Of a stretch of DNA of 64,000 nucleotides, positions 8,541 to 13,622 are shown one piece after another; position 1 is the first letter of the stretch, and every line of letters begins with the position of its first letter. The position numbers were made by a program, and so were the translations under genes. The notes below the pieces were generated by a model. It searched no databases and was not told the DNA's origin. It saw only the letters and a program-made list of their open reading frames with translations. Source of the stretch: Thermoproteota archaeon (GTDB lineage: Archaea; Korarchaeota; Korarchaeia; Korarchaeales; Korarchaeaceae); NCBI GenBank assembly GCA_027492205.1, contig JAOZFN010000017.1, positions 32,001 through 96,000 of the forward strand. Direction: 5' to 3'.

Positions 8541-8933
8541 TTAATAATTGGGGGGTCCAGGCCGGGTCCTCCCCGAGAGGCGCCTCAGCAGGCCCAGGTC
8601 GTCGACGAGCGGCACCCCCCCCACCACGTCGTCGATGACGGGGGCCCCCTTCTCCACCAGCCTCTCGACGTCCTCGGGCCTGAGCGGGATGGGCTCAATC
8701 CCCGGGAGGAGGTGGGGTCGTAGGAGATCGTACCTCTCGAGTGGGTTCTTGGGCAGGGACGGGGAGACTACCAGGACGTCTATGTCACTCCAGGCGTTGA
8801 AGTCACCCCTCGCGGTCGATCCGATCACTATCACGGAGGCGGGACGCACGAGGTCTAGGATGGACTCGGCGAATATCCTGGCCCTCCTCAGCCTCTCTTC
8901 CCTCTCCCTCCTCCTCCTCTCAATGACCCCCAC
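8541..8933 (-). CDS. minimal nucleotidyltransferase (MNT) antitoxin
   Basis: GSTARGDFNAWSDIDVLVV; GTG at 8933 overlaps the HEPN gene. Confidence 0.88.
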   Translation of the reverse strand: MGVIERRRREREERLRRARIFAESILDLVRPASVIVIGSTARGDFNAWSDIDVLVVSPSLPKNPLERYDLLRPHLLPGIEPIPLRPEDVERLVEKGAPVIDDVVGGVPLVDDLGLLRRLSGRTRPGPPNY

Positions 8934-9310
8934 TTCTCCTCGACGAACTCGATCACCCTCCTGGCATAAAAAATGGCCTCCTCCGCCTCCCTCCTCGTGT
9001 AGTACTCGTGGGGGGATCCCTCTGACCACATGTCCGCGTACCTCGGCGCCGTGTAGAATTTGTCCAGCCTCGCGCAGGCATCCCTCACGTCGTCGGGAAC
9101 CTCTCCAATAAGCTCCGAGAGCCTCAGCAGGCTGTGCCCAAAGGCAGGCTGCCCCACGCCCCAGAGGTACGCTTTGAGGGCGTACTCTGCGGCCTGCTGG
9201 GACTTGAAGCAGGCCCAGTTGTAGTCTCCGCCCTCCAGGTCCCTAATGGCTGATCGGAGCGTGTGCCTGGCGCTGCCCATCCAGCGCCTGAACTCCTCCT
9301 CGTCGAACAT
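8888..9310 (-). CDS. HEPN domain protein
   Basis: YNWACFKSQQAAEYALKA, GHSL, LDKFYTAPRY. Confidence 0.9.
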   Translation of the reverse strand: MFDEEEFRRWMGSARHTLRSAIRDLEGGDYNWACFKSQQAAEYALKAYLWGVGQPAFGHSLLRLSELIGEVPDDVRDACARLDKFYTAPRYADMWSEGSPHEYYTRREAEEAIFYARRVIEFVEEKWGSLRGGGGRGKRG

Positions 9311-9407
9311 TCGGGGCGGGTCCCGCCGGCTTCAAAATAGGTGTTTGGTGGGATCCGGGGGGCCTGCGCGGCGGCCGTTATTAGTGGGGTCGGGCGCGAA
9401 CTCAGGG

Positions 9408-11765
9408 ATGGCCACCACACCCTCCGAGGGGAGGGCCGGGAGGTGGCTCTCCAGGCTCCTCCTGCTGGAGCGGCCCGGGGTCGAGATGGTCCGAACCCCG
9501 GAGACGGAGAGGCTCCTCAAGAAGAGGGTGGACGTGCTGGTTCCGGAGTCCGCCAGGCCCCTGGAGGAGGCGGTCCTCCACCACCTGTGCGGAGAGGTCG
9601 TCGACGGGGTTCCCCCGCCTAGGGTCATCGTCCTCCTGGGACCCCTCGGCTCGGGGAAGACGGCGGTGTGCGAGAAGATAGCCCAGGAGGCTGCGGCAAG
9701 GTCGAGGGCGCTGGAGGTCAAGTTCGTGAGCCCCAGCGACGTGTTCAGCAAGTGGTACGGCGAGAGCGAGAGGAGGGTGGCCTCTCTCTTCTCAGTGCCC
9801 AGGGGGAGGAGCAGGCTCGTCGTCTTCGACGACTTCGACAGCTTCGTGTCCGTGGACGTCTCCTCGATGGACCTGGACAGCCCCGGACAGGTCGCCGACC
9901 TCAGGGTGAGGGACGAGCTGGTCCACAGGCTGGACGAGCTCGCCTCTGGGGACGAGGCCATCGTGGTGGTGTTCACAAGCAACTCCGACCGGGTGATCCC
10001 GGACTACAAGAAGAGGGCCAGGATCGTCAGGCTGACGTACAGCAGGGAGGAACTCGTCCAGGTCACGAGGATCCTACAGGAGAGGTATGGGGTCGAGGCG
10101 GACCCCGAGGAGGTGCTGGAGGCCGTGGAGGAGGCCGTCTTCACCCTGGGGTACAGGTACGTGGTACCCGGAGACCTGGAGAACGTCCTCTACTCGGCGG
10201 CCGAGGAGGCGCGGAGGGAGGGGAGGAGGGCGACCATCCAGGACGTCAGGGCGAAGGCGCTGAGCGCGAAGGACTACGCGGAGTCCACCGTCCTTGACGC
10301 GGCCCTCATGATCAAGCCGAAGACCACGCTCAGGGACGTGGGCGGGATGTGGAGGGTGAAGAGGGCCGTCGTCGTTCCCGTGGCCGTGGTGATGATGAGC
10401 CCGAGCGTCGAGGCCCCCAGGGGGATCCTGCTGTACGGCCCGCCGGGCACCGGGAAGACCACGCTGGCCAGGGCCCTTGCCGGGACCTTCAATGCCACCT
10501 TCCTCTACGTCAAGCTGACCGACATATATGGCCACAGGGACCCCCTGAAGGTGCTCAGCGACGTCTTCAGGGAGGCGAGGAAGAGGCAGCCCAGCATCCT
10601 GTTCTTCGACGAGTTCGACGCCATAGCCGCGGACAGGAGGGTCAACCCGGTGGCCGCCAGAATAGTGAACCACCTCCTACAGGAGATGGAGGGGCTCCTG
10701 CAGGGCAGGAACAGGATCATCGTGATAGCCGCCACGAACTTCGTGGAGAGGGTCGACCCGGCGATAATCTCGAGGTTCCAGCCCAACGTGATCTACGTCG
10801 GGCTGCCGGAGACCTACGAGGAGCTGAGGGAGATACACGAGGTCTACGTGAGGAGGTACGGGGCCTCGTTCACGGCCGAGGAGGCTCTCAGGCTGGTCGG
10901 ACTTAGGGTGAGGGTGCCCAGGATGATATCGAGGCTCTACGAGGAGGCCGAGAGGCTCAGGCAGGCGGAGCTCGTCTCGGAGCTCGTGGACGACTGCCTC
11001 CTGGGAGGGATCTTCGAGGAGCACAGGAGGAGGCGGAGGGCCATAGAGGAGAGGCACGGCCGCGGCGACGGATATCCCCTGAGGCTGGAGCACCTGTCAG
11101 AGGCCCTGAGGAGGTTCACCGGTCTGAGCGAGACCCTGAACGCGATCTCCGTCTCGGCCACCCCCGGGGGAGATAGGGTCGTGGGCAGGGCCATGGCCGT
11201 CGCCTCGCTGAGCGACAGCGGCGAGGGGGTGGTGTTCCCTGTCGAGGCGGTCTCATCGACAGAGAGGCGGGGCGTGGAGGTGCTCGGGGCCGACGAGACC
11301 GTCCTGGAGTCGGCGAAGGCCGCTAGGGCCTGGCTCGCCCAGAGGCTGCCGGAGGCCGACAGGCGCGGCTGGACCGTCCAGTTCATCACGCCAGCGGAGG
11401 GATCCCCCCAGAGGCCCTCTGGGCCAAGCGCGGGCCTGGCCATCGCCGTCGCGATGTGGAGCGAGCTCACAGGGACCCCGATCAGGCAGGACGTCGCCCT
11501 ATCGGGCAAGGTCTCCGCCAAGACGGGGGTCGTCGGGCCCGTGGGCGGGTGGGACAGCGCCAACACGGGAAAGATCTCGGCGGTCCTCGCGGCAGACTGG
11601 GTCAGCTGCGTGGTCATCCCGGAGGCTAACAGGTTCGAGTACGGGGTGGAGGTCAGGGAGAACCTTGCCGTGAGGGAGCTGGAAAGGAGGGGCAAGAGGG
11701 TGGTGTTCGTGAGGACCGTTGACGAGGCCATCGAGGTGGCCTCCGGGGGGCGGGGCTCGGAGTGA
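9408..11765 (+). CDS. tandem AAA+ ATPase (CDC48/PAN-like) fused to a Lon-type S16 protease domain
   Basis: D1: GPLGSGKT, SKWYGESE, VFDDFD. D2: GPPGTGKT, FFDEFD, AATN..DPAIISRF. C-terminal GPSAG (Ser), PVGG..GKI (Lys), IPEAN. Confidence 0.85.
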   Translation: MATTPSEGRAGRWLSRLLLLERPGVEMVRTPETERLLKKRVDVLVPESARPLEEAVLHHLCGEVVDGVPPPRVIVLLGPLGSGKTAVCEKIAQEAAARSRALEVKFVSPSDVFSKWYGESERRVASLFSVPRGRSRLVVFDDFDSFVSVDVSSMDLDSPGQVADLRVRDELVHRLDELASGDEAIVVVFTSNSDRVIPDYKKRARIVRLTYSREELVQVTRILQERYGVEADPEEVLEAVEEAVFTLGYRYVVPGDLENVLYSAAEEARREGRRATIQDVRAKALSAKDYAESTVLDAALMIKPKTTLRDVGGMWRVKRAVVVPVAVVMMSPSVEAPRGILLYGPPGTGKTTLARALAGTFNATFLYVKLTDIYGHRDPLKVLSDVFREARKRQPSILFFDEFDAIAADRRVNPVAARIVNHLLQEMEGLLQGRNRIIVIAATNFVERVDPAIISRFQPNVIYVGLPETYEELREIHEVYVRRYGASFTAEEALRLVGLRVRVPRMISRLYEEAERLRQAELVSELVDDCLLGGIFEEHRRRRRAIEERHGRGDGYPLRLEHLSEALRRFTGLSETLNAISVSATPGGDRVVGRAMAVASLSDSGEGVVFPVEAVSSTERRGVEVLGADETVLESAKAARAWLAQRLPEADRRGWTVQFITPAEGSPQRPSGPSAGLAIAVAMWSELTGTPIRQDVALSGKVSAKTGVVGPVGGWDSANTGKISAVLAADWVSCVVIPEANRFEYGVEVRENLAVRELERRGKRVVFVRTVDEAIEVASGGRGSE

Positions 11766-12376
11766 CTAGGAGGGGGCTGGGCGCCCTGATAGCCGCGCTG
11801 GCCTACGCCCTGACCGTCATCCACGTCACGTGGGCGGGCATGACGCACTTCGGCCAGGTAACGTTGGAGCTGGACGCGAGCTCGGAGTCGACTCTGGTAG
11901 TCAGGAACCTGGCCGGGAGGAGCGCTGTCGTGAGGCTCGTCTTCGTGGGGGACAGGAGGATCCAGGTGGGCCGGAACGTGGGTCCTGGGGGCCTGGTGAG
12001 GGTGGACCTGGGTGGGCCGAGCGGAGAGAGGATCCTGGTCGTCACAGATGCCGGGGAGTGGGTGCTGTTCCCCGGGGGAAAGAGGGTGGTGACGAACAGG
12101 CTGACCAGCCAGGCGGCCCTCGTCGTCGTATCGGTCTGGACGCTGTTCCCGCCACTGGTGGTGTTCCTGTGGGAGTACTTCAAGGGGGTGAGGGGGGTAG
12201 CCGCCCCCTACCTCCTGGCCTACGCGCCCACGGCGGCCTCGTGCCTCCACGCCGGAGGGGCCTGGGCGGCCTTCTCTCCCCTGGTGTCGTCCCTGGCGGG
12301 GAGCGCCTCGGCCCTCCTACTGTCGGAGTACGCCAGGAGGAGGTTAATTGTCGAGGAGGGGGCGAGGGAGGGGTGA
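11762..12376 (+). CDS. hypothetical membrane protein
   Basis: N-terminal hydrophobic helix, small beta-rich domain, ~3 C-terminal TM helices; GTGA overlap with the AAA-Lon gene. Confidence 0.7.
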   Translation: MTRRGLGALIAALAYALTVIHVTWAGMTHFGQVTLELDASSESTLVVRNLAGRSAVVRLVFVGDRRIQVGRNVGPGGLVRVDLGGPSGERILVVTDAGEWVLFPGGKRVVTNRLTSQAALVVVSVWTLFPPLVVFLWEYFKGVRGVAAPYLLAYAPTAASCLHAGGAWAAFSPLVSSLAGSASALLLSEYARRRLIVEEGAREG

Positions 12377-12383
12377 GGGTGGG

Positions 12384-13622
12384 TCAGGCCAGGGCCTCGA
12401 GCCTCACCCCCTTGGTCTCCGGGACGGTCCAGATCAGGGCAGCGGCGAGAAGCACAGCCACCGCAGCGGCCATGAGGCCGGCGTTAAACCCGGCAAGGCC
12501 GGCGACGTAGCCCAGCAGGACCGGGGCGGCGAACGAGACGGCCCTAGCCCCGTTGTAGCACAGGGAGGCCCCGGTCGCCCTGACCCTCGTCGGAAAGATC
12601 TCGCCGAAAAGCGCCCCGTAGACCGAGAAGAACCCGCAGGCAAACGTGTTTGCGGCCAGGGCCGCGAATCCCGTAAGCCCGGGCCCGGCTGCCGTCAGCC
12701 CCAGGACCGAGGCGGCGAACATGGCGGCGTAGATGGTGAAGGTCGGCCTCCTCCCGATCCTGTCCGCCGCGACGCCGAAGAGCGCGTGCCCGAACCACCC
12801 AATGAGCCAGGAGGCCCCGACGAAGGTCGCCGACCTGACCATGGACATGCCCTTGACGGTCTCTAGGTAGGCCGGAGCCCAGGACCAGAGCGTGTAGAAG
12901 GCGAACATCCCGAGGGACGCGAGGGCGAGGCCCTTGAGCGTCCTCCCGATCAGGTCCCCGTGGAAGAGCTGGCGCAGGGTGGGCCACCCAGCCTTCTCGG
13001 AGAGCTCGGGCGGGAGTTCGCCCCTATCTTTGGCCCTCTTGTACTCCAGCCAGAGCCTCGACTCGGGCATCTTCCCCCTGACGACCACGAGCAGGAGTAT
13101 GGGGAGTACGGCCACGGCGAATCCCGCCCTCCAGCCGAACCTCGACATGACGAGGGCCGCGTCCGTAGAGGCTATGGCCATGCCTATGGGCCAACCCGCC
13201 TGCGTGAGGCCCACCATGCTTCCCCTGGTATCTGGGGGCCAGACCTCGTTCAGGATCGCCATGCCTAGGCCCCACTCCCCGCCGATGCCCAGGCCGGCCA
13301 CGAACCTGAACAGGGCGACCTCCCAGAGGTTCCCGCTGAGGGCCGTGAGCCCGGTGGCCACGCTGTAGAGGGCAATGTCAAGCATGAGTCCCCTCTTCCT
13401 GCCTATCGCGTCGGCTATGACCCCAAAGAGCACCCCGCCCAGCCCCGTGGCCACCAGCTGCAGCCCGAACACGGAGCCGATGACCGTCTTGGAGACGCCG
13501 AACTCGGCCATCATCTGATTGAGCGCGAAGGATAGGACCGAGAAGTCAAAAGCGTCAAAGGCCCAGCCAGCCACCACGACGAACAGCGTCCAATACCTCT
13601 CAGAGCGGGTGTACTCGGCCGT
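12384..13622 (-). CDS. MFS transporter
   Basis: AFDAFD, ADAIGRK, GIGGEW, ADRIGRR, EIFPTRVRATG, VPETKG; first standard start is 13577 but the frame extends to an ACG at 13622. Confidence 0.9.
   Translation of the reverse strand, partial: TAEYTRSERYWTLFVVVAGWAFDAFDFSVLSFALNQMMAEFGVSKTVIGSVFGLQLVATGLGGVLFGVIADAIGRKRGLMLDIALYSVATGLTALSGNLWEVALFRFVAGLGIGGEWGLGMAILNEVWPPDTRGSMVGLTQAGWPIGMAIASTDAALVMSRFGWRAGFAVAVLPILLLVVVRGKMPESRLWLEYKRAKDRGELPPELSEKAGWPTLRQLFHGDLIGRTLKGLALASLGMFAFYTLWSWAPAYLETVKGMSMVRSATFVGASWLIGWFGHALFGVAADRIGRRPTFTIYAAMFAASVLGLTAAGPGLTGFAALAANTFACGFFSVYGALFGEIFPTRVRATGASLCYNGARAVSFAAPVLLGYVAGLAGFNAGLMAAAVAVLLAAALIWTVPETKGVRLEALA

Follow-up and report, generated by a model that had tools for sequence, protein, structure and literature searches.

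Tandem classical AAA modules joined to a Lon domain and coupled to a membrane-protein gene in a korarchaeal contig: a divergent member of an archaeal AAA-AAA-Lon family

What kind of machine would be formed by a polypeptide in which two classical AAA modules are followed by a Lon-type Ser-Lys peptidase, and how could it reach the membrane? This question is raised by a locus in the stretch of 64,000 nucleotides (nt) of contig JAOZFN010000017.1 (positions 32,001 to 96,000, forward strand; assembly GCA_027492205.1, Korarchaeota) that was analysed as a whole and is called the window below. The locus consists of an open reading frame (ORF) of 785 amino acids (aa), here called the protease, and an overlapping gene for a 204-aa membrane protein, here called the partner. 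The original prediction described the ORF as two classical AAA modules with a Lon domain, and this description was confirmed by Pfam searches and by a motif script. The two genes probably encode a membrane-associated, self-compartmentalised ATP-dependent protease of an AAA-AAA-Lon family together with its membrane partner, and the protease gene itself is a fast-evolving, divergent member of a family that is widespread in archaea. The two genes are laid out in the window as follows.

9408..11765, + strand: protease ORF (785 aa, from the ATG at 9408), read from the sequence
9408..9590, + strand: short N-terminal region, residues 1-61 (alignment A1, model)
9591..10277, + strand: D1 AAA module, residues ~62-290 (Pfam, alignment A1, script)
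10305..10979, + strand: D2 AAA module with lid, residues ~300-524 (Pfam, NCBIfam, alignment A1, script)
10980..11174, + strand: helical linker from D2 to the protease domain, residues ~525-589 (model, family consensus)
11175..11765, + strand: Lon (S16) proteolytic domain with stop codon (Pfam Lon_C, profile matches)
11762..12376, + strand: gene of the 204-aa membrane partner, its GTG start overlapping the protease stop (GTGA)

Domains were located by Pfam and NCBIfam searches and motif positions by script. Pfam recognised two AAA stretches (PF00004), the best of them at residues 340-459 (D2), and Lon_C (PF05362) at residues 607-752 with a score of 44.7 bits against a cut-off of 21.1. The best NCBIfam matches, to CDC48, PAN, CdvC and FtsH models, fell on residues 282-483 and were all far under their cut-offs, and the NCBIfam Lon models matched mainly the C-terminal domain. 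In D1 the Walker A motif GPLGSGKT (78-85) is followed by the pore loop KWYG (115-118) and by the Walker B motif LVVFDDFD (137-144), where D141/D142 stand in place of the DE of most relatives, and the R202 position holds Lys; the pore loop and the DD had both been read in this way in the original prediction. D2 carries Walker A GPPGTGKT (344-351), Walker B ILFFDEFD (397-404) with its DE at D401/E402, the sensor-1 residue N444 and the unusual pore loop DIYG (372-375). The claim of an intact DE in D2 therefore stood, but that of an intact second region of homology did not, since the first Arg-finger position is Ser (AIIS-RF) and R456 is the sole retained arginine.

The proposed Ser-Lys dyad was borne out by profile alignment. 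The catalytic Ser674 lies in GPSAG (672-676; codon 11427-11429) and the catalytic Lys722 in TGKIS (720-724; codon 11571-11573), and both align to the Lon dyad positions of LonB chains, with ~4-5 extra residues ahead of the Lys. The family profile of the proteolytic (P) domain matches LonB structures best (3k1j, E 3.5e-34; 1z0w, E 3.3e-32), with the LonA structure 7p6u at E 2.3e-29 and the whole range of LonB and LonA matches at E 1e-34 to 1e-26.

An AlphaFold2 model built with alignment A1 reached a mean predicted local distance difference test (pLDDT) score of 80.1; residues 1-26 are below 50. The N-terminal region is modelled with helices at 10-18, 31-38 and 47-61, and the linker, for which the family consensus is P..Y.L.L.HF..A, with helices at 530-550, 560-571 and 574-583. 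The best Foldseek matches of the model in the PDB are p97/VCP, Cdc48 and Rix7, over ~570-628 columns, and on this ground the overall build is predicted to be a type II classical AAA unit, then a helical linker, then a Lon domain. As had been claimed, the protease has no transmembrane (TM) segment (highest Kyte-Doolittle 19-residue mean 1.33, threshold 1.6) and its gene overlaps that of the 204-aa membrane protein by GTGA.

This architecture is not confined to the window. At least 18 clusters at 50% identity share AAA-AAA-Lon_C, with records from Bathyarchaeia, Marsarchaeota-like archaea, Nitrososphaerales and Micrarchaeota. A word-indexed search returned two proteins of like architecture among its best 120 matches, the remainder being AAA matches, and an exhaustive search of representatives returned ~20 of 860-1070 aa that aligned across most of the query. 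Both AAA modules and Lon_C were recognised at E <= 1e-6 in 18 of the 21 representatives checked; the exceptions were P0167, with a degenerate P domain in which Arg replaces Lys, P0260, which at 630 aa has two AAA domains but gave no Lon_C match, and P0194, a four-AAA protein. Members are named in the databases "AAA family ATPase", "SpoVK/Ycf46/Vps4 family" or "transitional endoplasmic reticulum ATPase". Their loci come from Nitrososphaerales (L087-L089, L091 and L094), from three further records titled just "archaeon", from Micrarchaeota (L095), from Marsarchaeota and "Thermoproteati archaeon" records, including the complete genome L099, and from Bathyarchaeota, with 12 records of 61-64% identity to P0150. 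In locus searches with the whole-family alignment generic AAA motifs dominated and mostly CDC48-like loci were returned; searching with the window protein alone was likewise generic, apart from the 98% ortholog L178. For such searches the nine-sequence P-domain alignment A2 was too diverse, whereas the closer three-sequence alignment A3 could be used.

The family is defined by alignment A1 of 20 sequences, in which the D1 Walker A, D141, the D2 Walker A, D401/E402, T443/N444, R456 and Ser674 are invariant (20/20) and Lys722 is present in 19 of the 20. The A1 profile gives the window protein 767 bits, in a match that covers positions 55-881 of its 895. A careful tree built from the 20 members and six CDC48s separates the family from the CDC48s with support 100/100 and nests the window protein, together with P0002, inside the family (support 94/93 and 88/85); the branch that bears them is very long (2.0 substitutions per site). 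The unusual amino-acid composition of the window row makes its precise position uncertain. Other members carry an N-terminal extension of ~100 aa with the motif W..R..R.L..PLL..YR, of which the window N-terminal region is the truncated counterpart, and the window protein and P0002 keep a mere remnant, GRWLSRLLLL.

Some proteins met in these searches depart from the common build. In the family member P0197 (1261 aa) D2 and the Lon domain are separated by an intein that carries a LAGLIDADG domain, and another member, P0192 (1120 aa), has an additional C-terminal BSP-type peptidase domain. Among P0139-P0147 and P0006-P0008, the top-scoring representatives are giants (1278-2124 aa) in which 4-6 AAA-like stretches occur. 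Several others, 1133-1188 aa long, named FtsH and with a PF01434 match, match 49-62% of the query, and these may be tandem-AAA zinc proteases, parallel to the AAA-AAA-Lon build.

The partner of the window has hydrophobic segments at 4-27 and 116-139. Its model (mean pLDDT 66.5, with 79-89 in the beta domain) shows a helix at 3-29 (TM1), eight strands within 33-112 and helices at 114-141, 144-163 and 173-203. It is kept downstream of the protease gene in the genomes G003 and G004, with a length of 204-209 aa in the clade. Its overlap with the protease stop is 4 nt long in the window and in G003 but 23 nt long in G004. The window and G004 versions share 43% identity for the partner and 75% for the protease, and the best-conserved partner stretch (126-154) covers the end of TM2, a short loop and the start of TM3. 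No match was found for the partner in Pfam, NCBIfam or PADLOC, and no usable one in the Atlas; a Foldseek search against the PDB gave no match at E <= 1e-3. Its best Foldseek matches, the archaeal type IV pilins 8fk7 and 6nav (E ~4e-3), were set aside as a generic helix-plus-beta-sandwich likeness. The partner profile finds just three clusters among 5.8 billion proteins.

In relatives the membrane gene lies on the other side of the protease gene: a membrane protein of ~240-300 aa is encoded directly upstream in 27 of 33 full-length loci. A scripted scan for same-strand ORFs abutting the protease gene covered 26 loci (L087-L112), 23 of them full-length. In 18 of these 23 (Nitrososphaerales, Marsarchaeota-like and Bathyarchaeota) there is an upstream same-strand ORF of 239-285 aa, with two C-terminal hydrophobic segments in all 18 and an N-terminal one also in 16; L108 has a 109-aa hydrophobic ORF instead, and at L088 and L111 the upstream DNA is too short to judge. 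The gaps between partner and protease range from -277 to +37 nt, the negative values coming partly from the choice of the longest ORF by the script. The P0158 clade, which is nearest to the window in the tree, is represented by 11 metagenome loci, and in all 10 full-length ones a membrane ORF overlaps from upstream (nine of 268-296 aa and one of 172 aa).

Partners of these other clades belong to no Pfam family. Those of the Bathyarchaeota/Marsarchaeota type align with those of the P0158 clade at an hhalign probability of 81% (E 1.2e-5, 33 columns) and with those of Nitrososphaerales at 10.7%, and six of the 13 invariant positions of the Bathyarchaeota/Marsarchaeota type flank a short loop between the last two hydrophobic segments. 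Throughout the family a membrane-protein gene next to the protease gene is the rule, as would suit an anchor or adaptor made separately. In the original prediction the absence of the membrane gene beside homologs was named as a ground for refutation; in the letter this is the case, as the 204-aa gene itself does not stand beside distant homologs, but not in spirit, because these carry a different membrane partner upstream. A translationally coupled membrane protein with an ectodomain is thus retained as a trait, the gene itself being a different one or having diverged beyond recognition. At the Marsarchaeota-type loci L096-L099 a further gene, encoding 90-246 aa, has a 4-nt overlap with the protease stop; such a small downstream gene was not seen in most of the Bathyarchaeota loci scanned.

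With the A1 profile the protease gene was detected in three of 43 genomes of the phylum-level group, all three in the genus of the window (G000, G003 and G004), whereas neither G001 (96% complete) nor G002 (72% complete) gave a match. In G001, of the same genus, the flanks align at 90% and 94% identity, and the following element of the window is replaced by ~60 nt between the HEPN start and the MFS stop.

9311..12393, + strand: two-gene cassette, a presence/absence unit (flank alignment to G001)

Since both genes are missing together in G001, the protease and the partner come and go as one unit, whether by gain or by loss. Where present, the protease gene is under purifying selection: in the comparison of the window with G004 the ratio of nonsynonymous to synonymous substitution rates (dN/dS) is 0.14 for the protease, 0.34 for the partner and 0.07 for the flanking MFS gene, at a dS of 1.3-1.6, which is near saturation.

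Proceeding by analogy with type II AAA unfoldases and with Lon, six chains would assemble into stacked D1 and D2 rings atop a Lon chamber, the aromatic pore loops would grip the substrate, which would be unfolded and threaded into the chamber, and Ser674 and Lys722 would cut it there. D2 probably does most of the ATP hydrolysis and drives translocation, because its Walker A, Walker B and sensor 1 are intact, and D1 is probably mainly a nucleotide-binding assembly ring, because of the DD in its Walker B and the change of Arg202 to Lys; a comparable ring specialisation is known from p97 and NSF. The co-translated 204-aa partner would tether the protease to the membrane or present substrates to it, a role suggested by the lack of a TM segment in the protease and comparable with that of the N-terminal membrane module of FtsH and of the LonB insert, both of which act in cis.

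Several observations weigh against this picture of an active protease at the membrane. An impaired motor could be indicated by the DD of D1, the absent first Arg finger of D2 and the odd pore loop of D2, and the catalytic Ser and Lys are 48 residues apart against 43 in LonA and LonB, where the dyad residues are separated by exactly 42, i.e., are 43 positions apart, according to the available part of a 2022 paper (PMC9569914). The gene is dispensable within its own genus, being missing from the 96%-complete G001, and a sampled-word run search listed no RNA sequencing runs containing this stretch. Among the 23 full-length loci two, L095 (Micrarchaeota) and L102, have no partner by the criterion of the script. 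The window partner shows no detectable homology to the upstream-type partners (hhalign probability 0.07-0.11%), so its role is not simply transferable from other clades. Finally, very little of it is predicted by the model to face the cytoplasm, and the window protease is without the conserved N-terminal extension of its relatives, so that no obvious docking surface is offered.

The alternative that survives best accepts an active ATP-dependent protease but makes it soluble, with the adjacent membrane protein as its dedicated substrate, sensor or regulator, not its anchor; for instance, a surface-exposed receptor might have its cytoplasmic parts cleaved or might gate the protease. The rapid evolution of the partners (43% identity against 75% for the protease; partner dN/dS 0.34), the fact that partners of different clades are barely or not alignable, the extracellular beta-rich domain of each and the minimal cytoplasmic exposure would all suit such a role. 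However, tight translational coupling and near-universal adjacency in distant lineages suggest a stoichiometric complex, partners of the Bathyarchaeota/Marsarchaeota type are best conserved in the C-terminal TM hairpin and loop and not in the ectodomain, and co-inheritance as an insertion/deletion unit is needless for a pure substrate, so that this alternative is regarded as unlikely.

It has also to be considered that in this lineage the cassette is an accessory module, possibly a conflict-related one such as a defence or stress island gene, and not part of housekeeping proteostasis, perhaps in the course of being lost. Its clean presence/absence polymorphism in one genus, the branch of 2.0 substitutions per site, the degenerate D1 motifs and the lost N-terminal extension point this way, as do the IetA ATPase models that are the best PADLOC matches of D2 and a HEPN-nucleotidyltransferase pair that adjoins the cassette in the window.

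8888-9310, - strand: HEPN gene (Pfam scan)
8541-9029, - strand: nucleotidyltransferase gene (ORF, side observation)

These two genes, a toxin-antitoxin-like pair (8541-9310, - strand), lie between a GTPase gene and the cassette. At the G004 locus there is a cassette but no pair, and in G001 a pair but no cassette; as they occur separately, the insertions or deletions of the two are independent and the pair is unlinked to the cassette. The PADLOC matches are restricted to the generic AAA core, and the NCBIfam IteA model scores 84 bits against a cut-off of 510; membership in a defence system through the PADLOC matches to IetA and TRIP13 was rejected, the AAA core alone being covered. Moreover, the protease dN/dS of 0.14 speaks for a maintained gene, the GC content of the cassette is similar to that of its flanks, and elsewhere the family looks vertically conserved (61-64% identity across Bathyarchaeota records). 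An accessory role of this kind is therefore considered quite improbable.

That the fusion is an artefact of assembly or gene calling, in which a CDC48-like gene was falsely joined to a Lon gene in a metagenome-type assembly of 17 contigs, can practically be dismissed, since the same continuous frame recurs in G003 (98% identity), in G004 (76%) and in the five members of the P0002 cluster (from ENA, Logan and NCBI), the same build is found in dozens of distant loci, including the complete genome L099, and two other studies yielded contigs of ~95% identity that cross the junctions of D1 with D2, of D2 with Lon and of the protease with the partner (X1 record 1 spans window positions 9300-11392 and X2 record 9 spans 9858-12400), which also answers the check for a chimeric join proposed at the outset.

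The preferred reading, a membrane-associated AAA-AAA-Lon protease with a partner, takes the gene from the ATG at 9408. The frame is open on the + strand from 9246 to 11765, and an extension of the coding region over 9246-9407 was rejected, because it runs into the HEPN gene of the opposite strand and has no conserved counterpart in G004. The G004 ortholog begins with MSTTPSKG and the window protein with MATTPSEG, i.e., at matching residues, and the following element lies upstream.

9378..9383, + strand: TATA-like box TTATTA, ~28 nt upstream of the ATG, read from the sequence

It stands out as AT-rich in DNA of 66% GC, and its equivalent in G004 is TTATAA ~31 nt upstream of the ATG there. Such placement matches the usual distance of archaeal TATA boxes from the start and suggests a leaderless or short-leader transcript. 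On the HEPN overlap, the matching start in G004 and the TATA-like box together the start at 9408 was accepted.

In the DNA runs that were matched at most 0.20 of the sampled words were present, and the source is a strain of ~95% identity. Word-based run searches were dominated by the D2 Walker A motif, and the depth of contigs from other runs spikes 10- to 30-fold at 10340-10547, the D2 Walker A region; this spike is made of short pieces of AAA genes of other organisms and not of copies of the protease gene.

Other Lon genes bear on the place of this family in the cell. G000, the genome of the window, has a second Lon_C gene (contig C9, locus L177, 1216-3159). The 647-aa protein that it encodes has a signal-like N-terminus, then a Lon_C domain in which GGPSAG occurs, a long helical stretch and, at the C-terminus, a hydrophobic tail, and it has no ATPase. 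It was tried as a LonB and rejected as a secreted or anchored Lon_C protein without ATPase, and from its sequence it looks like an ATP-independent extracytoplasmic Lon-like peptidase. The LonB model TIGR00764 gave no match above its cut-off in any of 20 genomes of the phylum-level group (G000-G012, G025-G031), and it passes the cut-off in the one outgroup genome sampled; weak matches were noticed in 641-695-aa frames of several relatives. Nor was it above the cut-off in the four genomes with distant family members (G052-G055): in three of them its sole match is the AAA-AAA-Lon gene, and the fourth adds a 652-aa frame at 160 bits. A complementary distribution of the AAA-AAA-Lon family and LonB is possible, on a small sample of 24 genomes in which absence from incomplete genomes is no proof.

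To our knowledge, every characterised AAA+ protease either has a single ring fused to the peptidase, as in Lon and FtsH, or a one- or two-ring unfoldase docked on a separate peptidase, as in ClpXP, ClpAP and PAN or Cdc48 with 20S. A Lon chamber joined in one chain to two classical rings, its membrane module encoded by another gene, would be a different build, and would allow tests of how a stacked pair of rings feeds such a chamber, of what lets D1 degenerate and of how a protease is recruited to the membrane in trans. The tentative proposal, put forward at somewhat less than even confidence, is a third kind of archaeal energy-dependent protease beside the proteasome and LonB, in which a double-ring AAA unit with a Lon chamber in cis acts at the membrane through a separate, exchangeable partner. 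If this is true, the window shows outright partner replacement, with a lineage-specific downstream 204-aa protein instead of the ancestral upstream one, D1 can decay to a structural ring, and the AAA-AAA-Lon machine is a membrane quality-control protease in lineages without LonB. Members of the family are common in two groups that abound in sediments and soils, Bathyarchaeia and Nitrososphaerales, and the window offers a natural experiment, with a shortened enzyme, a different partner and a sister genome missing exactly both genes (a 3.1-kb cassette).

As to novelty, which had also been claimed, no published description of a tandem classical AAA fused to Lon_C was found in a search that left subscription journals and supplements outside, but the architecture as such is already widespread in the databases, as in the 18 of 21 representatives above. 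The available part of a 2008 survey of Lon_C architectures lists no tandem-AAA-Lon_C (PMC2605481); the accessible text of the 2022 paper distinguishes the Lon subfamilies A, B, C and BA (PMC9569914), and that of a 2012 paper on archaeal AAA proteins names PAN, CDC48, AMA and MBA (PMC3493965).

The known systems can be set against the window protease one by one. LonA shares with it the P domain with the GPSAG (Pro-Ser) motif and the union of ATPase and protease in a single chain, but has a single Lon-type AAA+ module and a LON N domain (PF02190); no match to this domain was found in the window protease among the best 25 of 39 Pfam families. The LonA model TIGR00763 scores 64.5 bits against a cut-off of 608. 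The ATPase of LonC is inactive. LonC is described as having no ATP-powered unfolding activity (PMC3391209), and LonBA is reported by the 2022 paper to be found so far in firmicutes exclusively (PMC9569914). None of LonA, LonC and LonBA has two classical AAA modules.

LonB is closer, since it also has the ATPase and the Lon Ser-Lys peptidase in one chain, gives the best sequence match of the P domain (3k1j from Thermococcus onnurineus and 1z0w, the P domain from Archaeoglobus fulgidus) and shares the presumed membrane location. The one AAA+ module of LonB is of the Lon type and includes a membrane insert, and an Asp stands ahead of the catalytic Ser, as given in the available part of PMC9569914, whereas the window protease has two classical AAA modules and no TM segment, its membrane part being a separate gene, and a Pro ahead of the Ser (GPSAG). 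By the passages available of PMC9569914 and PMC2605481 the Pro-Ser motif is of the LonA type and Asp-Ser of the LonB type. The LonB model TIGR00764 stays below its cut-off on the window protease (44.6 bits against 516.6). In place of the one Lon-type AAA+ module directly before the P domain that marks Lon, two classical-type AAA modules were found.

With Cdc48, VAT and p97 the window protease shares the tandem classical D1-D2 pair, the best whole-chain structural matches and a D1 pore loop of the KW[YF]G type. Archaeal Cdc48 feeds the 20S proteasome in trans, according to the accessible part of PMC3493965. The C-terminus of the window protease is a Lon domain and not an HbYX tail; CDC48_N and CDC48_2 (PF02359, PF02933) were not found in it among the Pfam families listed, and the CDC48 model TIGR01243 scores 154.2 bits against a cut-off of 802.65. 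The original prediction spoke of a CDC48-type D1-D2, which as ancestry was not borne out. In a quick domain tree of 20 family D1, 20 family D2, six CDC48 D1 and six CDC48 D2 sequences, with long branches and no PAN, FtsH or Vps4 rows, the family D1s form their own clan (support 99), and the D1 and D2 of CDC48 together form one clan (support 100) beside the family D2s. A pairing of D1 with D1 and D2 with D2 was not recovered in this tree, so the data do not support descent from the CDC48 D1-D2 pair, and "CDC48-like" is a fair term for the look.

FtsH, finally, also fuses a classical AAA module in cis to a protease and works at the membrane, and its topology of TM, ectodomain and second TM resembles that of the separate window partner. 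It differs in that a single AAA module, a zinc peptidase (M41) and the membrane helices all belong to one chain; M41 (PF01434) was not found in the window protease among the Pfam families listed, and the FtsH model TIGR01241 scores 96.4 bits against a cut-off of 600. Thus, the sequence comparison supports the distinction originally drawn for this cis fusion: it combines a tandem classical AAA unit, a Lon chamber and a membrane protein on a separate gene, and falls outside the sets of features by which LonA, LonB, CDC48, PAN and FtsH are recognised.

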